The notes under the pieces are model-generated. The model saw nothing but the letters and a program-made list of their open reading frames with translations, made no database searches and had not been told where the DNA came from. A DNA stretch of 64,000 nucleotides from Bacillota bacterium. Its GTDB lineage: Bacteria > Bacillota > Clostridia > DUPQ01. Position numbers and translations under genes: made by a program. Location: assembly GCA_022706885.1 (NCBI GenBank), contig JAKJBR010000006.1, positions 670 through 64,669 on the forward strand. The letters run 5' to 3'. Shown here piece by piece: positions 12,215 through 55,660 of this stretch (the first letter of the stretch is position 1; each line of letters begins with the position of its first letter).

Positions 12215-12969
12215 TGTGCGATATGGAAATCATTAAACTTCCATATATAAATTCCACCAATACATATGCAAAAGATAATGCGCAGTCTTTCAGTAAGAAA
12301 ATTACGGTAATACAGGCGGAAAGACAGTTGCAGGGCAGAGGACGGTTAGGCAGGGATTTCCTATCCGACAACAGCGACGGAGCATGGTTTTCCGTGGTTA
12401 TCAAACCTGAAAAAGACACTATTTCTCCCCAAACGGTACTGTTGATGCCCATTCTTGCGGCAGGCGAAACGGCTGCTGCAATAGAAGATATATACAGTAT
12501 AAAAGCGGGGATAAAATGGCCTAACGATATATTGATTAACGGTAAAAAGGTATGCGGGATACTGTGTGAAAGCAGTGTTGCCGACAACAATGTTCTTCTG
12601 ATTGTTATAGGCATAGGCATAAATGTCAATCAAAAAGCGATGCATCCCGATATAGCGGATATTGCCACATCACTGTTTATGGAAACCGCTATCCAAGTTC
12701 CTGTCGACCTGCTGATACAAAATATATGTGGAAATATAGCCTGCTCTTATGATAAAATTAGACGCGGGAATACAGCCGGCATAATAGATAAGTGGAATGA
12801 ATACTCTATAATGAATAATGCTGTCATAACCTATACGAAAGGACAATCGTTGTACAGCGCAGTTTCCAAAGGAATTGACAGGCAGGGCAGGCTGATAGCC
12901 GAACAGGACGGATTGACGATATATCTTGACTCGAGCGAGATAAGTATAAAAAGCACAAGGAGCAAATAA
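12211..12969 (+). CDS. birA: biotin--[acetyl-CoA-carboxylase] ligase, class I (no HTH domain)
   Basis: QGRGRLGR and KWPNDI motifs. It begins directly with the catalytic domain. Confidence 0.8.
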   Translation: MMCDMEIIKLPYINSTNTYAKDNAQSFSKKITVIQAERQLQGRGRLGRDFLSDNSDGAWFSVVIKPEKDTISPQTVLLMPILAAGETAAAIEDIYSIKAGIKWPNDILINGKKVCGILCESSVADNNVLLIVIGIGINVNQKAMHPDIADIATSLFMETAIQVPVDLLIQNICGNIACSYDKIRRGNTAGIIDKWNEYSIMNNAVITYTKGQSLYSAVSKGIDRQGRLIAEQDGLTIYLDSSEISIKSTRSK

Positions 12970-13286
12970 TGGACGACAATCGGAATACCGCTTCCGCAAA
13001 TGACGGCAACCGGAAGAGGTCGAACAACAATTATTACAGAAAGAAAAAGAACTATTCGGGTGAGCGAAAACAGGACAATTTGCCCGCACAGGCGACTGCA
13101 GGTGAGGAAAGAGATAACAGAAAACCTTCTCAAAATAAAGGATATAATAATTACAAACGCTATAACAGGGACAGAAGAAGAAACCGCAGCGGGGAAGAAA
13201 CCGTTGATGATATAAAAAAGGATATAATGAGGATAGAAAAAGAAATCCGGCTGGAGATTGAAGAAATAAAAATGATAAGGGTGTAG
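12969..13286 (+). CDS. small highly basic low-complexity protein
   Basis: 105 aa, rich in R/K/N. The start overlaps the birA stop (TAATG) and the ORF ends 3 nt before coaX, which suggests translational coupling. Confidence 0.4.
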   Translation: MDDNRNTASANDGNRKRSNNNYYRKKKNYSGERKQDNLPAQATAGEERDNRKPSQNKGYNNYKRYNRDRRRNRSGEETVDDIKKDIMRIEKEIRLEIEEIKMIRV

Positions 13287-13289
13287 AGA

Positions 13290-14096
13290 ATGCTTTTAGC
13301 TATTGATGTGGGAAATACCAATATCGTAATGGGGGTACATAACGGGGAAAAATATACCAATGTGTGGCGCCTGACGACCAACAAAGAAAGAACCCCTGAA
13401 GAATTCGGAGTTTTCTATATGAACATGTTCAATGCAGCCGGTCTGAAACTGTCCGATGTTGATGCCATTATTCTTTCTTCGGTTGTACCGGGAATAATGT
13501 ATACGCTTACCAGCAGTCTGGAAAAATACTTTAACCGGACACCCTTGCTGGTGGAACAGGGAATAAAGACCGGATTGAATATAAAGATAGACAATCCCAG
13601 AGAACTGGGGGCGGACATAATAGTAAACTTGGTCTCCGCTTATGAAACATATAAAGGTCCGGCTATAGTAATTGATTTCGGTACTGCAACCACATTCAGT
13701 TGCGTAACGGATAATTTCGAGTGTCCCGGCGTGGTAATATGCTCGGGCGTCAGTCTTACAGCCGAGGCTTTGTACAAAAGAGCGGCAAAACTGCCTAATG
13801 TAGATATAATAAAACCTGCTAAGGTTATAGGCAAAAATACTATAACCTCCATGCAGTCGGGTATAGTAAACGGCTACCTGGGGCTGATAGCGGGCATAGT
13901 GAATGATATGAAAAAAGAGCTTGCGGAAGACTATAACCAGAAGTATGAGGACATAAAGGTTATAGCCACCGGAGGTCTTTTAAGCATTATTGCCAAAAAC
14001 AGCGACCAGATTGACTATATAGACGGAATGCTTACACTGAACGGGCTTAAACTGGTTTATGATAAAAACAAATCCAAGACGGAGGGAAAGGCATAA
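13290..14096 (+). CDS. coaX: type III pantothenate kinase
   Basis: MLLAIDVGNTN and the GTATTFS acetate/sugar-kinase fold motifs. Confidence 0.9.
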   Translation: MLLAIDVGNTNIVMGVHNGEKYTNVWRLTTNKERTPEEFGVFYMNMFNAAGLKLSDVDAIILSSVVPGIMYTLTSSLEKYFNRTPLLVEQGIKTGLNIKIDNPRELGADIIVNLVSAYETYKGPAIVIDFGTATTFSCVTDNFECPGVVICSGVSLTAEALYKRAAKLPNVDIIKPAKVIGKNTITSMQSGIVNGYLGLIAGIVNDMKKELAEDYNQKYEDIKVIATGGLLSIIAKNSDQIDYIDGMLTLNGLKLVYDKNKSKTEGKA

Positions 14097-40489: not shown

Positions 40490-40531
40490 AAGAAACGTCT
40501 ATCGCCTAAAAGACGTTTCTTCTTGTGTTTT
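40490..40531 (+). terminator. intrinsic terminator after the tRNA
   Basis: AAGAAACGTCT-loop-AGACGTTTCTT perfect 11-bp stem followed by CTTGTGTTTT. Confidence 0.6.
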
Positions 40532-40595
40532 AGGCAATCATCGGACTGTTTTGGAGTGAAAAATGGTCATAAAATTTTGCAAATGTATGCTAAAT

Positions 40596-40605
40596 GCTTG
40601 CAAGC
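40596..40605. promoter_or_regulatory. perfect 10-bp palindrome GCTTGCAAGC upstream of relB (candidate autoregulatory operator)
   Basis: Lies about 50 nt upstream of the relB start, inside a promoter-like region (TTGCAA ... TACTAC). Confidence 0.35.
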
Positions 40606-40657
40606 TGCAAAAATTTGTGACATACTACAACCAGATAAACATAAGGAGGTTTTTCCA

Positions 40658-40963
40658 ATGGCAAATACAGCTACCGTATATGCAAGAATTGATCCCGAAC
40701 TCAAATCGGATGTCGATTCCATTCTTAATAAGCTTGGAGTAACTCCGTCCGCACTTATCCAAATGCTCTATAGCCAAATCAAACTGACAGAAAGCATTCC
40801 GTTTGAGATTAAAATTCCGGCTAAGATTCCGCTTTCACTCGGAAGCATGTCTGTTGAACGGTTGAACACTGAACTTCAGAAAGGAGTTGACTCGGTGAAA
40901 GCCGGTCGTGTACACTCTGCGGATGAGGTTGACGGAATACTGAATAAGGAGTTCGGTATCTGA
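40658..40963 (+). CDS. relB: RelB/DinJ-family antitoxin
   Basis: AAGGAGG ribosome-binding site. N-terminal RHH-like region (ATVYARIDPELKSDVDSILNKLGVTPSALIQML). Followed 2 nt later by a RelE/ParE toxin gene. Confidence 0.7.
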   Translation: MANTATVYARIDPELKSDVDSILNKLGVTPSALIQMLYSQIKLTESIPFEIKIPAKIPLSLGSMSVERLNTELQKGVDSVKAGRVHSADEVDGILNKEFGI

Positions 40964-40965
40964 TA

Positions 40966-41283
40966 GTGAAGTATTCTGTAAACTATTCCGATGAAGCACT
41001 GGACGATCTTCGGGATATTTATAGCTATATATCCGAATCTCTTATGGAACCGACCATTGCTGCCGGACAGGTTAACCGTATCCGTACTGAAATTAAAGCA
41101 CTTGACAGACTGCCGTTTCGTCACAGTGTTGTTGATTGGGAACCATGGCATACAATGGAAATGCGTCACTTTCCGGTAGACAACTTCGTTGTTTTTTATC
41201 TGGTGGAAGATAAAAGCGTAAATGTTGTTCGCATTTTTTACGGCAGACGGGATATTGAATCAATTATAAAGAATTCCAAATAG
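40966..41283 (+). CDS. relE: RelE/ParE-family toxin
   Basis: 105 aa, GTG start. MKYSVNYSDEALDDLRDIYSYI...FRIFYGRRD matches the ParE/RelE fold signature. Confidence 0.7.
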   Translation: MKYSVNYSDEALDDLRDIYSYISESLMEPTIAAGQVNRIRTEIKALDRLPFRHSVVDWEPWHTMEMRHFPVDNFVVFYLVEDKSVNVVRIFYGRRDIESIIKNSK

Positions 41284-41344: not shown

Positions 41345-41640
41345 TATCGTCCACATCAAAAAGAGATATGCAAACCTGAAGATTCACTATATTAAAAAGA
41401 CTTATATCCTATCGGTATATCGGAAATACGAACACCGCTCGGAAATGTAGTTCAAGTTTATGATGTAGAAAGAAGCATTTGCGACATCGTTCTTGATAGA
41501 GAAAAAGCCGATACACAGTTTTTGTCGGTACACTTTCCGTATATTTCAAAGGAAAAAACAAAGATTTAAGAAAACTTATAAATTACGGCAGACAATTCGG
41601 AATCGAAGAAGAGATACGGCGTTATGTGGCGTTCTTTAAA
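41345..41640 (+). pseudogene. 3'-half fragment of an abiEi-like gene, frameshifted
   Basis: About 93% nucleotide identity to 52105-52400, the 3' half of the intact gene at 51816. It has a 1-nt deletion in an A-run and lacks the 5' half. Confidence 0.55.
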
Positions 41641-45641: not shown

Positions 45642-48600
45642 ATGAAAGTAAAAAGGAAATTATTATCTGTTTTTTTGGTAATATCCATGTTGGCAGGGAT
45701 TCTGCCCTTAACCGCTCTGCCGGTATATGCGGCCAATCCGCCGGCGACAGATGTATCAGTATATACTACGGAAGGTAATCAAACTCTCGACTCCATGTAT
45801 CCGTACCTGGTTAACGGGAAGAAGGCAAAAACGGGTACTTTGGGAAGTGGCGGATGTACCGCCTATTTTGACCATACTACCGGTATCTTGACACTGCAGA
45901 ATCATAGCGGAGGTAATATAGTGAAAGGTTCTTTAGGGGGTAAAAAGGATTTGACCGTTAAGTTGGTCGGTACTAATGCTCTTACATCCGCTTTGCAAAA
46001 CATATCGGGCGGGGACCTCATAATCACGGCAGAGGATACCGCCACTCTTTCGATTACTAACAACACAGACACTAACGGTGTTATAACAGGCATAAGTACC
46101 GATATTACGGGAGTTAACGCCGGACCCGGAAGTATAACAATTAGAGGAAAAGCAAATATATCCATATACGTAGAAAACATAAGTACAGGTGTAGAATCCG
46201 GGGTCCGAGGTATCTTTGCTAAACAGGATATATCTATCCTTGATAATGCATCGGTGAATATTGAATGTATAGGCAAAGGGACGGGTTCCTACCCGGTATC
46301 AGGAATTCAAAGTACAAATAAAAGTGTAACATTCAACACAACGGGAAAAGTAAATATCGACTGTTCGGATGCACAGAACAAAAATCCATATGCTATTAAC
46401 AATATGCTAGCAAATATTTTAACCTCTGTCGATGAACTTACTCTAAAATGGACGAACGGAGGTCGTGGATATAGTTTAGTTGATGGTGGTATGTCATATG
46501 ATGTCACATCTTTTACCCGCAACATCAAAGAAGCTACACCAACCCAGCCCGGAATAGAGGTCTTCAAGAAAGGAACACCTCTTACTTTAACGATAGAAAA
46601 CGGCAAAAACAATTTCGGCAAAAAGGAAGGGCAATTTACCCACGGAGAAACAGTAAATGTTACGGCCAATTCCATTACCGGTCTGACATTTAAAAAGTGG
46701 GTAGCCACAGCCGGTATAATCGGATGTGCCACAGATTCTTCCACCACTTTAACCATGCCCGATGAGAATGTAACGCTTACGGCAATATATGATGTTTTTG
46801 CCGTACAACCTAAATCCGCCTATGTAAGCGCTACATCGAGAAAAGTCACTTTTTCTTTAAAGGCAACTCCTACTACTTATGCTCCCCGTTTAGTTACCGA
46901 ATCCGGAGATTATAACGACATAGTCGGGGAGACAACTTTCGGTCATGATGGCGCATTAAACTATTCAGAAGTTATTCGTTGTATTGGAATATTCGATGTT
47001 CCGAACGGCAATTACCGTATTGCCGCCAAATTTGACGATGTATGGTATTATAGCGATGTTTTCACGGTAGATTATAGTACCCATAGCATAACCGTTGACG
47101 GAGATGCGGTTGAGACTACCGACTACACAATAACGGGTGTAAGTGACTTCAGTTCTATACCGGACGGTACAAACCTGACAATCAATGCAGTTAATGATAT
47201 TAATGTTGACGGAGAGAATGTAGTCGCCGGCAGCTCAAAGACTATAGTTATCAATTCGTCCTATACCATAACCATTAATAAAAAGGTGAGCAATAGTGCA
47301 CCTACGGTAGTTGTAGGAAAGGAAACGCAAACCGGAAATGCAACTCCGAAGGCAAGTAGCGGTATTCCTGCAGCGATTGCGTATGAGGCGGATATGTCGG
47401 GATGGTTTAATGATGCTGACGGTGACGCTTTGACTTACTCGGTAGTATCGGCAAGGGAAGGCACAAATGATGTTTCCGCTCATGTGAGTGTTGCGGGAAA
47501 GCACATCACCTATACACCTGCTGCCGCACAAGCGGGTAAAAATGTAATTATAAAGATAAAAGCAAATGACGGACTTGCAGACAGTACGGATAATGTAACA
47601 ATAACCGTAACTGTAGAGGAAGTGCCTGCAGATGCGAAGATATATAAGGTAACTGTTGCCGGAGATGCTGCCGAGACTACCGACTACACAATATCGGGAG
47701 CAACCGACTTGAATGCGGTGCCGGACGGAACGAATCTGACAATCTATGCGGTTAATAACATTACCGTTAACGGTGAAATTGTGACTTGCGGAAACTCCAA
47801 AAATATAACTATCAATTCAGCTCAAACAATAACCATTAACAAAAAGGTGGGCAATAGTGCACCTACGGTAGTTGCAGGAAAGGAAGCACAAACCGGAAAT
47901 GCAACACCTGAGGCTAACTGCGGTCATCCTGAAGCAGTAATGTATGAGGCGGATATGTCGGGATGGTTTAATGATGTTGACGGTGATGTATTGACTTACT
48001 CGGTAGTATCTGCAACGGAAGGCACAAATGATGTTTCCGCTCATGTGAGTGTTGCAGGAAAGCACATCACCTATATACCTGCTGCCGCACAAGCGGGTAA
48101 AAATGTAATTATAAAGATAAAAGCAAATGACGGACTTGCAGACAGTACAGGTGATGTAACAATTACAGTGAGTGTAGCGGCGGTTCCGGCGGATACAACC
48201 TACAAAGTAACCATATACGGAAATGCCGTTATAACAACCGACTATACGGTATCGGTAGCCGACTTGAATGCGGTACCGCACGGAACTGATTTAATAATCT
48301 ATGCGGTTAATGATATTACCGTTAGTGGCGAGGATGTGGCGGCAGGCGGCTCTAAGACTATAGCATCAATCGTTTCACCCTGTGGCATTGAAGTTAAAAA
48401 GAAAAATAACGCACCTACGGTAGTTGCAGGAAAGGAAACGCAAACCGGAAATGCAACACCTGAGGCTAACTGCGGTCATCCTGAAGCAGTAAGGTATGAG
48501 GCGGATATGTCGGGATGGTTTAATGATGTTGACGGTGACACTTTGACTTACTCGGTAGTATCTGCAACGGAAGGCACAAATGATGTTTCCGCTCATGTGA

Positions 48601-51434
48601 GTGTTGCGGGAAAGCACATCACCTATACACCTGCTGCCGCACAAGCGGGTAAAAATGTAATTATAAAGATAAAAGCAAATGACGGACTTGCAGACAGTAC
48701 AGGTAATGTAACAATTACAGTGAGTGTAGCGGCAGTACCGGCGGATACAACTTATGTGGTAACCGTTAACGGAGATGCAGTTATAACAACCGACTATACG
48801 GTATCGATAGCCGACTTGAATGCGGTACCGCACGGAACTGATTTGATAATCTATGCGGTTAATGATATTACCGTTGACGGTGCGGTTGTGGTTGCAGGTG
48901 GCTCTAAGACAATAGCATCAATCATTTCACCCTACAATATAACCGTTAACAAAAAGACCGGTAATAACGCACCCACGGTAGTTGTCGGAAAGGAAACGCA
49001 AACCGGAAATGCAACACCTAAGGCTAACTGCGGTCATCCTGAAGCAGTAAGGTATGAGGCGGATATGTCGGGATGGTTTAATGATGTTGACGGTGATGTA
49101 TTGACTTACTCGTTAGTATCTGCAACGGAAGGTACAAATGATGTTTCCGGTGATGTATATATTTTAGGAGCAGATATCCGCTATACTCCTGCTGCGACAC
49201 AGGCCGGCAAGGATGTGATTATCGTAGTTAAAGCAAATGACGGATCTGCAGACAGTACAGGTAATGTAACAATTACAGTGAGTGTAGCGGCGGTTCCTGC
49301 GGATACAACCTATAAAGTAACCATGTACGGAGATGCCGTTATAACAACCGACTATACGGTATCGGTAGCCGACTTGAATGCGGTACCGCACGGAACTAAT
49401 CTGACAATCAATGCAGTTAACAATATTATCGTTGACGGCGAGAGTGTAGCGGCAGGCGGCTCAAAAGTTATTACAATCAATTCATCTCAAACAATAACGG
49501 TTAACAAGGTAGCTATACCCAAACACACGGTAACCTATGATGTAGACGGCGGCAGTTTAGCAGCGCCTACTCAGGACGATGTGGCGGAAGGTGCTACTTT
49601 TGCAGTTGCTTCATATGCAGGTACAAAAGCCGGATTTACATTCGGAGGCTGGAACGACGGTAGCAGTGATTATGTGGCCGGTGCCGTTTACACAATGGGA
49701 ACGCTAAACGTAACCTTGACGGCGGTATGGAATGTAGCGTCGATAGCCGTAACCGGAGTAAAATTGGATTCTTCAACATTAACTTTAACGGCAGGCGGTT
49801 CAGCCGGAACATTAACTGCAACGGTATTACCTATGGATGCCGCAAACAAGAACATAACATGGGCATCAAGTGATACTTCGACAGCAACCGTATCAAACGG
49901 TGTAGTAACTCCTGTAGCAGCGGGAACGGCGACTATTACCGTTACAACGGAAGACGGCGGTAAAACAGCTACTTGTACGGTAAAAGTAGTTCCTGCAAAA
50001 CCTACGGGACTTGTTGCAATAAAACCTACTACGGCAGGCGGTACCGACGGTATGATTACCGGCACAAGTGCAATTATGGAATATGCAAACAATGTTTCCT
50101 TTACAGGTGCCGTTAATTGTATCGGTACAAAGATTACGAACCTTTCGGCAGGAACATATTATGTAAGAGTAAAGGCAACCGTAGCACACGATGCCGGAGA
50201 GGCGACCACGGTTGTAGTTCCCGCATTTGTTGCTATTGAGGAAGAGGACGAGGACATTTATATTCCCGTTACCGCTTCCACTATTCCGGCAAATAACGGT
50301 GCGGTCAACATAGGATATATTGAATCCGAAGGTGTGGTATCATTGGATTTAACCGACGATAAGATAGAGGAGATTATTAAGAAGAGCAGTAAAGGGAATG
50401 TGGACTTTAATGTTTCCGGAATTGAAAATGCTACATCGGTTGAAATACCCAAAGAGGCATTTGCAGCATTCGGTAAAGCGGATATGTCTGTAACTGTAAA
50501 ACTGCCCGACGGAAGCATTACTCTTGATAAAGAAGCCGTTGATTCGGTTTCCGAACAGGCTGAAGGAGATTCGGTAAATATTGAACTATCAGTAATTGAA
50601 GCTAAAGAGTTGAACCATCTTCAGGAGCAATCGGTAAAAGCGGACGATATAGTTGTTGATATCAACATTAGCGACGGAAAAGGCAATTTGATTAAGACCT
50701 TTGACGGAGAACTGACAATACAGATTCCTTACAAGGGAACTTTACCGGTAACGGTCTGGTACTTAAATAATGCCGGTCAGTTGGAGAAAATAGAAGCAAC
50801 TTACAAAGAAGGAATCGTTACGTTCAAACTCAATCACCTTTCAGTATATGTACTGGGACAAGATAAAGACAGAACAAAAGATTGGGATAATCCTTTTACC
50901 GATGTAAATGAAAAGGATTGGTACTATGATTCAGTGAAGTTCGCACATATGAACAAACTGATGTACGGTGTTGGCTACAAGCAGTTTGACCCCCACGGTT
51001 CTATACCTCGCGGACTGTTGCTTACCGTACTGCATCGTTTGGAGAAAACGCCCGAACCGAAAGGATATGGCGCATTCAAAGATGTAGCGGCAAACAAATA
51101 TTACAGTAAAGCTGTCAACTGGGCTGCCGAGAATAATATTGTAACCGGTTACGGAGACGGAAACTTTGGCCCCAATGACCTTATTACAAGAGAACATTTG
51201 GCATTAATCCTTATGAACTATGCCAAGTACAAAGGTTTTGACACATCAAAAAAGGCGGATTTAGAAATATTTGCCGACTCAAAGAGTATTTCCATTTGGG
51301 CAAAAGAGGCTATGGCATGGGTTGTTGCCGAAGATATCTATGTAGGTGACCAAGCCAATCTGAATCCTGCCGGTAACGCCACACGTTGCCAAGTAGCGGC
51401 AATATTCAAGCGTTTCATTGAAAACGTAGAGTAA
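45642..51434 (+). CDS. giant SLH-anchored surface adhesin (cadherin-like repeats, Listeria-Bacteroides repeat, Big_2, FN3-like, 3 x SLH)
   Basis: Signal peptide MKVKRKLLSVFLVISMLAGILPLTALPVYA, followed by beta-rich domains. Four ~187-aa repeats carry DxDGD(A/V)LTYS cadherin-like motifs. A Listeria-Bacteroides (flg_new) repeat GGWNDGSSDYVAGAVY is present. A Big_2 domain reads VTGVKLDSSTLTL...ATITVTTEDGGKTATCTVKV. The C-terminus has three S-layer-homology domains (FTDVNEKDWYYDSV..., FKDVAANKYYSKAV..., ...). Confidence 0.85.
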   Translation: MKVKRKLLSVFLVISMLAGILPLTALPVYAANPPATDVSVYTTEGNQTLDSMYPYLVNGKKAKTGTLGSGGCTAYFDHTTGILTLQNHSGGNIVKGSLGGKKDLTVKLVGTNALTSALQNISGGDLIITAEDTATLSITNNTDTNGVITGISTDITGVNAGPGSITIRGKANISIYVENISTGVESGVRGIFAKQDISILDNASVNIECIGKGTGSYPVSGIQSTNKSVTFNTTGKVNIDCSDAQNKNPYAINNMLANILTSVDELTLKWTNGGRGYSLVDGGMSYDVTSFTRNIKEATPTQPGIEVFKKGTPLTLTIENGKNNFGKKEGQFTHGETVNVTANSITGLTFKKWVATAGIIGCATDSSTTLTMPDENVTLTAIYDVFAVQPKSAYVSATSRKVTFSLKATPTTYAPRLVTESGDYNDIVGETTFGHDGALNYSEVIRCIGIFDVPNGNYRIAAKFDDVWYYSDVFTVDYSTHSITVDGDAVETTDYTITGVSDFSSIPDGTNLTINAVNDINVDGENVVAGSSKTIVINSSYTITINKKVSNSAPTVVVGKETQTGNATPKASSGIPAAIAYEADMSGWFNDADGDALTYSVVSAREGTNDVSAHVSVAGKHITYTPAAAQAGKNVIIKIKANDGLADSTDNVTITVTVEEVPADAKIYKVTVAGDAAETTDYTISGATDLNAVPDGTNLTIYAVNNITVNGEIVTCGNSKNITINSAQTITINKKVGNSAPTVVAGKEAQTGNATPEANCGHPEAVMYEADMSGWFNDVDGDVLTYSVVSATEGTNDVSAHVSVAGKHITYIPAAAQAGKNVIIKIKANDGLADSTGDVTITVSVAAVPADTTYKVTIYGNAVITTDYTVSVADLNAVPHGTDLIIYAVNDITVSGEDVAAGGSKTIASIVSPCGIEVKKKNNAPTVVAGKETQTGNATPEANCGHPEAVRYEADMSGWFNDVDGDTLTYSVVSATEGTNDVSAHVSVAGKHITYTPAAAQAGKNVIIKIKANDGLADSTGNVTITVSVAAVPADTTYVVTVNGDAVITTDYTVSIADLNAVPHGTDLIIYAVNDITVDGAVVVAGGSKTIASIISPYNITVNKKTGNNAPTVVVGKETQTGNATPKANCGHPEAVRYEADMSGWFNDVDGDVLTYSLVSATEGTNDVSGDVYILGADIRYTPAATQAGKDVIIVVKANDGSADSTGNVTITVSVAAVPADTTYKVTMYGDAVITTDYTVSVADLNAVPHGTNLTINAVNNIIVDGESVAAGGSKVITINSSQTITVNKVAIPKHTVTYDVDGGSLAAPTQDDVAEGATFAVASYAGTKAGFTFGGWNDGSSDYVAGAVYTMGTLNVTLTAVWNVASIAVTGVKLDSSTLTLTAGGSAGTLTATVLPMDAANKNITWASSDTSTATVSNGVVTPVAAGTATITVTTEDGGKTATCTVKVVPAKPTGLVAIKPTTAGGTDGMITGTSAIMEYANNVSFTGAVNCIGTKITNLSAGTYYVRVKATVAHDAGEATTVVVPAFVAIEEEDEDIYIPVTASTIPANNGAVNIGYIESEGVVSLDLTDDKIEEIIKKSSKGNVDFNVSGIENATSVEIPKEAFAAFGKADMSVTVKLPDGSITLDKEAVDSVSEQAEGDSVNIELSVIEAKELNHLQEQSVKADDIVVDINISDGKGNLIKTFDGELTIQIPYKGTLPVTVWYLNNAGQLEKIEATYKEGIVTFKLNHLSVYVLGQDKDRTKDWDNPFTDVNEKDWYYDSVKFAHMNKLMYGVGYKQFDPHGSIPRGLLLTVLHRLEKTPEPKGYGAFKDVAANKYYSKAVNWAAENNIVTGYGDGNFGPNDLITREHLALILMNYAKYKGFDTSKKADLEIFADSKSISIWAKEAMAWVVAEDIYVGDQANLNPAGNATRCQVAAIFKRFIENVE
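47283..49506 (+). repeat. in-frame tandem repeat, 4 x 561 bp (about 187 aa per unit), high nucleotide identity
   Basis: Units start near 47283, 47844, 48400 and 48951. Long stretches are identical between units, for example GGATATGTCGGGATGGTTTAATGATGTTGACGGTGA. Confidence 0.85.
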
Positions 51435-51618: not shown

Positions 51619-51718
51619 GGTGAAAGCCGGTCGTGTACACTCTGCGGATGAGGTTGACGGAATACTGAATAAGGAGTTCGGTATCTGATGGAGAAGTATT
51701 CTGTAAACTACTCCGATG
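51619..51718 (+). pseudogene. 100-bp remnant of the relB 3' end plus relE 5' end
   Basis: About 95% identical to 40894-40993. It encodes only an 18-aa RelE stub (MEKYSVNYSDV...). Confidence 0.5.
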
Positions 51719-51815: not shown

Positions 51816-52406
51816 ATGATAGCGTTAAAAGAGTACTTTAAAGAAAATCCTGTCATTACGAATAGGGATGCCGATAATATCGGGATAGGAAGACATGTTC
51901 TATCCGATTTGGCAAGTCAAGGAAAAATTGAAAGAATAAGACCGGGAGTATATCAAAAATCCGGTGAGATTTTAGATGATTTTGTTCTGATATCGTCCAA
52001 TAGAGATAGAGTTGTTTTTTCACACCAATCAGCCCTATATTTACATGATTTATCTGATCGTGTTCCGAACATCTTTAATATATCCGTACCTCAAGGATAC
52101 AATGCAAGCCACATCAAAAAGGGATATGCAAACCTGAAGATTCACTATATTAAAAAAGACTTATATCCTATCGGTATATCTGAAATACGAACACCGCTCG
52201 GAAATGTAGTTCAAGTTTATGATGTAGAAAGAAGCATTTGCGACATCATAGTTGATAGGGAAAAAATCGATGCGCAGATTTTTGTCGGTGCACTTTCCTC
52301 ATATTTCAAAGGAAAAAACAAGGATTTAAGAAAACTTATAAAATACGGCAGACAATTCGGGATCGAAGAAGAGATACGGCGTTATGTGGCGTTCTTTCGT
52401 GATTAA
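51816..52406 (+). CDS. AbiEi-like (type IV toxin-antitoxin / abortive-infection antitoxin) wHTH protein
   Basis: 196 aa. N-terminal wHTH-like region (ITNRDADNIGIGRHVLSDLASQGKIERIRPGVYQ) and the family-typical C-terminal extension. No AbiEii nucleotidyltransferase gene is adjacent. Confidence 0.55.
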   Translation: MIALKEYFKENPVITNRDADNIGIGRHVLSDLASQGKIERIRPGVYQKSGEILDDFVLISSNRDRVVFSHQSALYLHDLSDRVPNIFNISVPQGYNASHIKKGYANLKIHYIKKDLYPIGISEIRTPLGNVVQVYDVERSICDIIVDREKIDAQIFVGALSSYFKGKNKDLRKLIKYGRQFGIEEEIRRYVAFFRD

Positions 52407-52669
52407 CATAGAGAGTATAAAAGGGAAAATAAGAAACTTATATTATAAGAACGGCTACACACAGAGAAAGTTTGAATAAACAAAAAGAGATTGAAAAAAT
52501 ATTACGGGATATAGAAAACGATGACGTTTTGTCTTATAAGATAACGAAATCCGCCTTGCTTAAGCGTTGTGTCAATTATCTTGATATTAACGTAACGTAA
52601 TCGATTGTTTTAATTGCATATTAAGACAACTTTATATGTGTTATAATTATCCTATCGTCAGGAGGGAAA

Positions 52670-52900
52670 ATGATTAAGCAGATAGAATCAAAGGAACTGG
52701 AGTTTGCTATATTTTGCATAGAAAACACAGCTGTGCATCTTGGCATTAAAGGGAGTGTTCTGTACAAGAAGCTTACCGAGGAAAGCGACATTCTTTATGA
52801 TTACATAATACCGCTGTATGATGCTCTTCATACTCAGAGTAAAGAATATATCGTGGATGATATCTTGAGGGTTATGGAGAAGAGAGGTATTGCGGCATGA
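52670..52900 (+). CDS. DUF3791-like small protein
   Basis: 76 aa, helical. Overlaps the downstream gene by 4 nt. Confidence 0.5.
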   Translation: MIKQIESKELEFAIFCIENTAVHLGIKGSVLYKKLTEESDILYDYIIPLYDALHTQSKEYIVDDILRVMEKRGIAA

Positions 52901-53367
52901 AACTATATCACGCTTCAAATGTAGAGGTTTCAAAACCTGACTTGGTTCATTCCAGAAAGAACCTTGACTTCGGTGTCGGTTTCTATACTACACCGATTTA
53001 TGAACAAGCTCTAAGTTGGGCAAACAGGTTTCGAAAGACTGAAGGTTATGCAGTTATTTCAGAGTATGTCTTTGACAAAACAGCTTATCAAACTTTAAGT
53101 ATACTTAAATTTGACGCCTATTCGGAAGATTGGCTGAATTTTATAATAAGCTGTCGTACAGGAAAAGACAACACAACTTATGATATCGTAATTGGCGGAA
53201 TAGCAAATGATAAGGTTTTTAACACAATTGAGCTTTATCTTGACAATCTGATTGATAGAAAAGAAGCAATTAAGCGACTTAAGTACGAAAGGCCTAATTC
53301 CCAATATTGTTTCAGGACGGAAAAAGCACTTGCTTATTTAAGTTTTGAAAGGAGCAACTGTTTATGA
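52897..53367 (+). CDS. DUF3990-like protein (GFY motif)
   Basis: 156 aa. MKLYHAS...DFGVGFYTTP matches the recalled conserved GFY signature of DUF3990. Confidence 0.5.
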   Translation: MKLYHASNVEVSKPDLVHSRKNLDFGVGFYTTPIYEQALSWANRFRKTEGYAVISEYVFDKTAYQTLSILKFDAYSEDWLNFIISCRTGKDNTTYDIVIGGIANDKVFNTIELYLDNLIDRKEAIKRLKYERPNSQYCFRTEKALAYLSFERSNCL

Positions 53368-53597
53368 AGGCTCACCCTATTTTGCTACAAAAGAAATATG
53401 CAAGGATTGTGGAACAGTTTGCAAAAAAACAGGGTATAGAAATTAGCACTGCTCTTGATTTTTTCTACGGTTCCATGGTGTATGTTTTGATGAGCGAAGG
53501 AATATCGGATTTTCACTGCATGTCGGATACATATATAGTTGATGAACTTATTATTGAGTATTCAAAAGCTTTGAAAAAGAATCAATTAGATAAGTGA
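53364..53597 (+). CDS. DUF3791-like small protein (second copy)
   Basis: 77 aa, paralogous in pattern to the 52670 gene. Overlaps the upstream gene by 4 nt. Confidence 0.5.
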   Translation: MKAHPILLQKKYARIVEQFAKKQGIEISTALDFFYGSMVYVLMSEGISDFHCMSDTYIVDELIIEYSKALKKNQLDK

Positions 53598-54791
53598 TAC
53601 GGGAATTTTCCAAATTTTCTCTTTAACAGGACTTAATGTATTTGTATGACATATCACTCCGTAATAGGGGATACGAAAATCTTCTTGAGCTAAAACGGAG
53701 AAATTCTTTTCTGCATGAGAGGGATTATCGCTTAATTTAATTTCAAACGGATACAGTTTTCCTCCCATTTCAATGAGTAAATCTATTTCTCTTTGGTTAC
53801 TGTCGCGGTAATAATACATTTGCGGGCTTATGCCGTTATGTCGATAAGACTTGTATATTTCCGAAACTATCCAACTTTCAAAAAGATTTCCTTTTAGCGG
53901 ATTCATATCAAAAGCCTCGACTGTCCTGATAGAACACAGGTAAGCAGCCAGTCCGACATCACAGAAATGAATTTTGGGCCGTTTAATGATTCTCTTTCCC
54001 AAATTTCGGCTATATGCAGGCAGCTCGATTACCAGACCGCTTGTTAAGAGAACATCCAGCCACCTTCTCACCGTACTGCTGTCAACACCTAAATCTTTTC
54101 CGATACTTGCCAAGTTTAATTCCTGTGCGGTACATATTGCAAGCAACGTCATAAAATGCAGGAACTGACCGGTATCCAAAACATTGGTAATTTCTCTCAC
54201 GTCACGTGCGATATAACTGTCAATGTATGACTGATAGTAACCTGCAACATCAATATTCTTTTGGAAAAGAACTCTTGGCATGGAACCTTGTATAATAGTT
54301 TTTGCAACAGAAAAAGACAAGATATCTTCCCGCATCATGTCGGACAAATCACGGGGAAAAGGATTATGCTCCTGCTCTTTGTATTCTTTTACGGAAAATC
54401 CGTCTAATTGCAAAATTCTGACTCTTCCCGCCAACGACTCCTGCACCCCGCGCATCAGAGGATAAACTTGCGAGCCGGTAAGCCAAAAGAGATTGTTCTC
54501 ATTACGGGCATCTATAATCATTTTTATATACGGAAAAAGTTCGGGAGCATATTGAATCTCATCAATCAGAAGAGGAGTTTTAAAGCGTTCGAAAAACAAT
54601 TCGGGATTGAATCGTGCCAGGTTTCTCAAAGCTGGATCATCAAGACTTACATATGTCCTTTCGTCTTCTTTCAAATGCAGCAAAAGCGTGCTTTTACCTA
54701 CTTGTCTTGGCCCCGTAAGCAAAAGTGCAGGATAATATTGTGTTTGCTGTTTAAAATACTCTTCAATTTGACGTCTGCGATAAGTAATCAT
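53586..54791 (-). CDS. AAA+ ATPase (AAA_14 + DUF4143 / COG1373 family)
   Basis: Walker A LLTGPRQVGKST and Walker B LLIDEIQY. C-terminal DUF4143-like region. The preferred start is the ATG at 54791 after GAGAGG; the tool's longer ORF runs into an upstream hydrophobic low-complexity stretch. Confidence 0.7.
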   Translation of the reverse strand: MITYRRRQIEEYFKQQTQYYPALLLTGPRQVGKSTLLLHLKEDERTYVSLDDPALRNLARFNPELFFERFKTPLLIDEIQYAPELFPYIKMIIDARNENNLFWLTGSQVYPLMRGVQESLAGRVRILQLDGFSVKEYKEQEHNPFPRDLSDMMREDILSFSVAKTIIQGSMPRVLFQKNIDVAGYYQSYIDSYIARDVREITNVLDTGQFLHFMTLLAICTAQELNLASIGKDLGVDSSTVRRWLDVLLTSGLVIELPAYSRNLGKRIIKRPKIHFCDVGLAAYLCSIRTVEAFDMNPLKGNLFESWIVSEIYKSYRHNGISPQMYYYRDSNQREIDLLIEMGGKLYPFEIKLSDNPSHAEKNFSVLAQEDFRIPYYGVICHTNTLSPVKEKIWKIPVSLI

Positions 54792-54978
54792 TTTGATATA
54801 CCTCTCTATAATTAAGATTATTATACTAAACATATTCATGAAAATCAAGGATTCAATCCCTGAAAAACGGGGATGCAATCCTTGAAAAGCATAAATTCCT
54901 GTTAAAGACAGGAACTTTATCCAAACATAAGTGAGGTATTTTTTGCGTAAATTTGTGCGGCAAATTGCTAAAACCCTC

Positions 54979-55660
<682 letters not shown>

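Follow-up and report, generated by a model that had tools for sequence, protein, structure and literature searches.

ADP-ribosyltransferase (ART)-fold toxins drive several recently solved immune and addiction systems (DarTG, CmdTAC, ParST and MbcTA), and in CapRel-type fused toxin-antitoxin defence proteins a toxin with pyrophosphokinase chemistry carries a built-in autoinhibitory/sensor domain. DUF3990 is a large family (5,699 clusters at 50% identity, E <= 1e-3) for which, to our knowledge, no substrate is known. Here, we analyse a DUF3990 gene (B) and the two small genes that overlap it on either side (A and C) in a 64,000-nucleotide (nt) stretch of a Bacillota bacterium of the clostridial lineage DUPQ01 (assembly GCA_022706885.1, contig JAKJBR010000006.1, positions 670 to 64,669, forward strand), which in its entirety is called the window. 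The A-B-C triad is a self-contained, horizontally mobile and widespread three-gene cassette which, on balance, we are inclined to see as a tripartite toxin-antitoxin-like module for plasmid addiction and/or abortive infection.

The closest working likeness to the triad is offered by RES-type systems (ParST, Xre-RES and MbcTA), in which a small ART toxin is paired with a binding partner. These systems have two genes, with an Xre, ParS or MbcA partner, whereas the triad has three and its partners are helical DUF3791 proteins; B also differs from the RES-Xre/ParST toxins, since on strand 1 it has His where they have Arg, and Pfam finds no RES domain in it. The likeness to DarTG is looser, since its structural similarity to the modelled B is much weaker than that of the RES toxins and its antitoxin is a macrodomain, for which there is no match in A, C or the flanking genes, so that no enzymatic reversal is evident in the triad. 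Natural B-C and A-B single chains found elsewhere resemble CapRel-type fusions, but the chemistry is unrelated (ART versus pyrophosphokinase) and the parts are separate genes in the window. CmdTAC likewise has three genes, encoding an mRNA ART toxin and two accessory proteins, in an order that differs from that of the triad (PMC11618068). In TAC systems the third component is reported to be a SecB-like chaperone, whereas the accessory proteins of the triad are mutual paralogues with no SecB family match. Finally, DUF3990 is the C-terminal toxin domain of type VI secretion system (T6SS) Rhs effectors such as Serratia Rhs5 and Enterobacter RhsA (PMC4524185, PMC10763514), but these are secreted proteins with an N-terminal delivery apparatus, while B in the window is a stand-alone cytoplasmic protein of 156 amino acids (aa).

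A catalogued triad and its anatomy

The triad is already known as a catalogue entry. Contiguous, on the same strand and in the same order as the corresponding PADLOC-DB models, A matches PDC-M13A (PDLC04434, 1.6e-32), B matches PDC-M13B (PDLC04438, 1.1e-66) and C matches PDC-M13C (PDLC04442, 7.8e-35), while the ATPase gene next to them matches and belongs to PDC-S01 (PDLC04790, 4.3e-98), a single-gene candidate. Among the family assignments, this was the decisive result. The PDC systems are 145 phage defence candidates obtained through 'guilt by embedding' in BREX, DISARM and type I restriction-modification (RM) loci (Payne et al., bioRxiv 10.1101/2024.01.29.577857). PDC-M13, which shows no structural difference from the window triad, is a catalogue entry without reported activity or mechanism (bioRxiv 10.1101/2024.01.29.577857), and a survey of 6,530 rumen genomes counted 3,324 PDC-M13 and 10,358 PDC-S01 loci (PMC13356809). 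An earlier note on this DNA, made from the sequence alone, had called the module uncharacterised, which is true of its mechanism but overlooks that it was already catalogued.

The genes and elements discussed below are as follows.

52670-52900, plus strand: gene A, 76 aa, acidic five-helix DUF3791 protein (PADLOC PDC-M13A), putative neutralising/regulatory partner of B
52897-53367, plus strand: gene B, 156 aa, DUF3990 protein with predicted ART fold (PADLOC PDC-M13B), putative toxin/effector
53364-53597, plus strand: gene C, 77 aa, remote DUF3791 paralogue (PADLOC PDC-M13C), putative second partner of B
53586-54791, minus strand: ATPase neighbour, 401 aa, AAA_14 + DUF4143, COG1373 (PADLOC PDC-S01), outside the conserved module
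51816-52406, plus strand: AbiEi neighbour, 196 aa, solitary, without AbiEii, outside the conserved module
52639-52647, plus strand: promoter-like extended -10 element TGTTATAAT, read from the sequence, 22 nt upstream of the A start
52660-52666, plus strand: AGGAGGG, ribosome-binding site of gene A, read from the sequence

Family membership is as the earlier note had proposed. In Pfam, A is a DUF3791 protein (E 2.1e-19, 69.7 bits against a cut-off of 25), B is a DUF3990 protein over its full length (E 2.5e-53, 180.3 bits against 32.2) and the ATPase combines AAA_14 (1.2e-27) with DUF4143 (2.1e-43), C alone staying below the DUF3791 cut-off (E 3e-4, 21.1 bits against 25). The AbiEi gene matches Pfam AbiEi_4 (1.6e-8) and the PADLOC AbiEi model (3.7e-62), and no NCBIfam model matches the triad proteins.

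The three open reading frames (ORFs) are exactly those that the note had described, with 4-nt overlaps at which the start codon sits on the preceding stop, both the A/B and the B/C junction reading ATGA (GGCATGAAAC, TTTATGAAGG), and a purine-rich ribosome-binding site precedes each gene. The extended -10 element upstream of A, a putative promoter judging from its sequence, goes unlisted in a consensus promoter scan because a good -35 hexamer is absent. The ~85 nt directly upstream of A are identical in a sister strain, with mismatches and indels appearing farther upstream. Comparison with this strain, whose B protein is 96% identical to that of the window, gives ratios of nonsynonymous to synonymous substitution rates (dN/dS) of 0.08 for A, 0.19 for B and 0.70 for C, all below 1 and all resting on very few substitutions.

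Gene B, a candidate ADP-ribosyltransferase

Whether the DUF3990 protein has an ART-like fold, a question raised in the earlier note, is answered in the affirmative by a structure modelled from 37 homologues (predicted local distance difference test, pLDDT, 92.5; predicted template modelling score, pTM, 0.85), in which B has the split beta-sheet fold of the ART superfamily. The nearest solved structures of this model are the RES/ParT/MbcT toxins of toxin-antitoxin systems, followed by PARPs and diphtheria toxin, and Foldseek is concordant. Membership of DUF3990 in the Pfam ART clan has been reported (PMC7955679), and several members of the family have sub-threshold ART-PolyVal matches. Sequence-only searches of the Protein Data Bank (PDB) with B, and with profiles of A, B and C, gave nothing significant.

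Residue conservation, counted across 81 sequences with denominators that vary by position, singles out five residues: (i) H5, in Y-H-G-S on strand 1 (78/79), (ii) Y30, in G-x-G-F-Y-T-T on strand 2 (79/79), (iii) D96, just before strand 97-99 (78/80), (iv) D105 (80/80) and (v) Q136, just before strand 137-139 (78/78). In ARTs, the catalytic triad at the NAD+ (nicotinamide adenine dinucleotide) cleft is of the H-Y-E/D or R-S-E type (PMC8120803), and H5 and Y30 of B, on strands 1 and 2, would fit the H-Y-E/D class of that report, with D96 or Q136 as a candidate third residue. Elsewhere, a 300-aa paralogue (L064:2634-3533) consists of the N-terminal two-thirds of DUF3990 fused to a Fic/DOC domain; it has its own DUF3791 gene upstream and adjoins a canonical A-B-C triad.

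Conservation, decay and mobility of the cassette

With one genome scanned per species, a pattern search found at least 575 loci encoding relatives, and conservation was assessed in the best 80 of these, which are mostly from Lachnospiraceae and other Clostridia but also include Veillonella, Bacteroidales, Treponema, Kiritimatiellia, Campylobacterota, Lentisphaeria and Adlercreutzia. Essentially all of these loci have the order A-B-C. Of 79 occurrences in other species, 63 retain the 4-nt overlap at the A/B junction and 60 at the B/C junction, far more than chance would give, and co-occurrence is strict, with A missing from five and C from two of the 79 occurrences, some of which lie at contig ends or are decayed copies. 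These overlaps and this co-occurrence are what is expected of a type II toxin-antitoxin system, that is, small adjacent co-transcribed genes and a toxin that hardly ever occurs without its partner. One Lachnospiraceae contig holds two complete triads ~2.2 kb apart (L019:9774-10686 and 12870-13797).

The three domains also occur fused and permuted. Single chains join A to B (DUF3791-DUF3990; P0313) or B to C (DUF3990-C; P0268, 1e-19; P0292, 7e-17; also P0331 and P0318), and on Bacteroides plasmids of the pBF9343 type a 149-aa protein encoded upstream of DUF3990 matches the C profile with its N-terminal half (4.8e-6) and the A profile with its C-terminal half (1.2e-13). More distant relatives have the gene orders B-C-A, [C-A]-B or A-B only. 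Since all three pairings (A-B, B-C and C-A) are thus found as natural fusions, along with permuted orders, these arrangements indicate that A, B and C would form one complex. Viral contigs in IMG/VR carry further variants: a ~32%-identical DUF3990 subfamily in a two-gene A-B form on ~17 contigs, and another subfamily ordered B-C-A (L116-L131, L142 and L110-L115).

Decay of the cassette is asymmetric. A stop codon interrupts B early in Negativibacillus massiliensis (L008), late in L066 and also in L075, and in L080 the gene has an internal deletion. Beside the broken B, A is intact in L008, L066 and L080; C is complete in L008 and survives in part in the other two. Only one locus (L056) combines a frameshifted A with an intact B ORF, and that B carries the substitution D96G. 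Small as the numbers are, such an asymmetry is expected if B were harmful without A.

Several contexts place the cassette on mobile DNA or among defence genes. A DUF3990 homologue is found on 88 plasmids, including the pBF9343 family of Bacteroides fragilis NCTC 9343, in which the module adjoins a zeta-toxin pair, and a 7.7-kb Phocaeicola plasmid. At another locus (L054:8727-10001), the DUF3791 gene continues the reading frame of a large serine recombinase ORF (Resolvase + Recombinase domains), which suggests that a mobile element carries the cassette there. Within two genes of the triad, PglX occurs at five loci, PglZ at three, BrxC at one and type I S subunits at three, with none of them in a distal control (148 proteins encoded 6-9.5 kb away at the same loci), and two DUF3990 ORFs are in frame with HsdS fragments (P0363 and P0378). 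The 137 and 127 proteins encoded within two genes of the triad matched 214 and 193 PADLOC models at 1e-10, the distal control only 23, which is a ~9-fold difference, albeit a crude one that counts PADLOC models matched rather than proteins. Together with the PDC-M13 assignment, this makes the toxin-antitoxin or defence-candidate reading of the earlier note a reasonable one.

A metagenome-assembled genome of the Clostridia offers a further case (L073:7032-11643), in which the triad sits within an apparently single long reading frame: an Eco57I/MmeI-type PglX-like methylase ORF runs stop-free into A and the C ORF extends by ~320 residues. The cassette may thus lie within a BREX/type IIG methylase gene, as an insertion or as an embedded unit. 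A phage origin or an anti-defence role was considered and rejected, the module not being phage-enriched: it was found in only seven of 50,697 phage records, all seven being unannotated faecal metagenome fragments, and on 46 IMG/VR contigs.

Genes A and C, remote paralogues

The earlier note had called the two flanking genes paralogous, which is right, if only remotely so. Pairwise BLASTP finds no similarity between A and C, but profiles built from 36 and 37 orthologues, respectively, align in register over 56 columns (hhalign 77.7%, E 1.9e-5), with the A motif LHTQSKEYIV-DI opposite the C motif MHCMSD-YLAEEL, and A and C are therefore remote paralogues. Both families are acidic, with a median isoelectric point (pI) of 4.65 for A and 5.06 for C. 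The only hint of DNA binding is a weak sequence match to the PDB entry 1s7o (E 0.096).

A working model and its alternatives

How might such a cassette work? In the mechanism that we propose, B would be a small ART-fold enzyme with an H-Y-D/Q site (H5, Y30, and D96 and/or Q136), which, when free, would arrest growth through an NAD+-dependent modification or depletion of an essential component of the cell. A and C, presumably the products of an ancient duplication, would be acidic five-helix proteins whose amounts translational coupling keeps in fixed proportion to that of B, and would bind B as one complex that holds it inactive. B would then be freed either upon loss of the cassette or its plasmid, or upon interference of a phage with A and C, leading to plasmid addiction and/or abortive infection, while the ATPase and the solitary AbiEi would be independent genes in the same small patch of low G+C content.

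A number of points speak against a toxin-antitoxin-like module of this kind. Modelled from database homologues, A has no helix-turn-helix, ribbon-helix-helix or AbrB relative and no recognisable DNA-binding fold, and neither A nor C shows a known antitoxin fold; since A and C are moreover acidic, classical type II autoregulation is unsupported, and the DNA-binding, autoregulatory antitoxin that is typical of type II systems is not found here. Covalent A-B and B-C fusions are unusual where an antitoxin is labile and separately degraded. As for B, either D96 or Q136 could be its third catalytic residue, and in the window an Ala replaces the usual Gly of the Y-H-G-S motif. The one locus with a broken A and an intact B is a single anecdote. 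A defence signal is seen close to the triad, but most of its neighbours in other genomes are housekeeping genes and very diverse (156 Pfam families in 137 neighbouring proteins), and in one Lachnospiraceae genome the triad stands alone between spoIVA and nucleoside-metabolism genes. Lastly, no experimental characterisation of DUF3990, DUF3791 or PDC-M13 was found in the searchable literature, and the PDC systems are explicitly untested candidates (bioRxiv 10.1101/2024.01.29.577857).

A bolder version of the toxin-antitoxin-like reading is possible but doubtful, namely that PDC-M13 is a mechanistically new tripartite anti-phage system in which a pseudo-dimer of A and C both inhibits B and senses phage, B representing an H-Y-D/Q clade of ARTs not characterised before. 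If it were true, the same three-domain unit could take several forms, namely three separate genes, a fused single-chain toxin-antitoxin or the toxin tip of an Rhs protein, and the target of B might be new as well, for example nucleic acid rather than protein.

Among the rival explanations, the one that survives best, improbable though we find it, is that the triad is a non-toxic, NAD+-dependent modification enzyme without any toxin-antidote logic. B would be the catalytic subunit and A and C targeting or adaptor subunits, with a nucleic acid, a small molecule or a protein as the target, by analogy with the inactivation of rifampin by Arr or the action of Tpt1 on RNA. The structures nearest to B are, however, those of toxins from toxin-antitoxin systems, and its domain serves as a toxin tip in Rhs proteins. 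It is also B that decays while A stays intact, the sole intact B beside a broken A having D96G, and the cassette has a patchy, horizontally transferred distribution, occurring on plasmids and next to genes of BREX and RM systems, which would be unexpected for a housekeeping enzyme.

We consider it very unlikely that the triad is an orphan polymorphic-toxin/immunity cassette, in which B would be a displaced tip of a secreted Rhs or contact-dependent toxin and A and C would confer immunity to the toxins of neighbours. The shared DUF3990 domain notwithstanding, B is full length and has a start codon and a ribosome-binding site of its own, genes for Rhs, PAAR or secretion proteins neither lie nearby in the window nor rank among the top neighbour families, and the hosts are mostly Gram-positive Clostridia.

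The neighbouring genes

The earlier note had included the ATPase in the module and treated AbiEi as an associate, and neither proposal holds up: judged by co-occurrence, on which both were rejected as components, the two genes are independent neighbours. A relative of the ATPase lies within 10 kb of the triad at 5/80 loci (phmmer with the window ATPase) and AAA_14/DUF4143 proteins lie within two genes of it at four of the first 40 (family scans), which amounts to ~5-9 of 80 species overall. AbiEi was not detected near the triad in any of 80 other species (single-sequence phmmer) and is not among the recurrent neighbour families. In the window, AbiEi is separated from A by 263 bp, a gap that contains no AbiEii, so that the pair which defines AbiE (AbiEi plus a DUF1814 nucleotidyltransferase, AbiEii) is not present. 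The DUF4143 domain of the ATPase has been placed in the PD-(D/E)XK nuclease superfamily (PMC3424549).

The least credible rival, to which we give very little weight, is a larger system of four or five genes, in which the AAA+/DUF4143 ATPase and perhaps AbiEi would join the triad, for example as a sensor/nuclease with an ART effector: the AbiEi-A-B-C-ATPase block is intact in the sister strain despite a different right flank, the ATPase is immediately downstream and convergent at one other locus (L081) and its family is absent from the 148 distal control proteins, but ~90% of the 80 species have no such ATPase within 10 kb, its position and orientation vary between loci (that of the window being on the opposite strand), PADLOC lists it apart from PDC-M13, as a single-gene candidate, it is extremely abundant by itself (10,358 copies in the 6,530 rumen genomes), and co-location in hotspots accounts for its modest association.

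In the window, the ATPase gene, whose ATG start is also used by public gene calls, converges on the triad, as the text of the earlier note had it (its title had 'divergent', which does not apply to the orientation), and its 3' end overlaps that of C by 12 nt (53586-53597). In the sister strain, C ends four codons earlier and the two genes abut without overlap. The AbiEi-A-B-C-ATPase block is kept only in the window's own lineage and the sister strain, homology between which stops at window position 54897, the flanks differing beyond. Two candidates in the gap between AbiEi and A were rejected: a 42-aa ORF (52472-52600), which has no family match, is frameshifted by a 1-nt indel in the sister strain and is probably not a gene; and a small RNA or riboswitch, for which there is no Rfam match.

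The G+C content is 35% at 52-54 kb, against roughly 40-45% over most of the window. The earlier note had placed the triad inside an island with Abi and toxin-antitoxin genes; AbiEi is indeed just upstream, but the block is flanked by a pyrimidine operon and the gene of an SLH surface protein, and a toxin-antitoxin pair, a RelB antitoxin (40523-40963, Pfam 1.1e-10) followed by a ParE toxin (40966-41283, 2.5e-10), is ~11.4 kb upstream of the triad. After RelB-ParE comes a fragment of the C-terminal half of AbiEi (41351-41637), 93.8% identical to 52109-52397, and 100 bp from the 3' end of RelB are repeated (97%) at 51619-51718, just upstream of the intact AbiEi. A ~10-kb two-component/SLH-protein cluster thus lies between these partial RelB-ParE-AbiEi copies, and the ancestral island probably read RelB-ParE-AbiEi-triad-ATPase.

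The surface protein itself (45642-51434, 1930 aa, SLH/Big_2/Flg_new) contains several internal repeats of ~560 nt that are 76-84% mutually identical by self-BLAST, and its length differs among strains (1744, 1930 and 1989 aa). On the other side of the block, a weak, sub-threshold match to a PyrR-binding attenuator (55014-55107, 30.3 bits against a gathering score of 54 bits) lies at the 5' end of pyrR, where it covers the upstream leader as well as the TTG annotated as start codon (55067), as expected for the leader of a pyr operon.

Concluding remarks

The analysis yields a hypothesis that can be tested in the laboratory, since it names the residues of B to mutate and predicts that both small proteins are needed and bind B, and that the ATPase is dispensable. 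As the module is carried by widespread Bacteroides plasmids, it would bear on how plasmids are maintained in the human gut.

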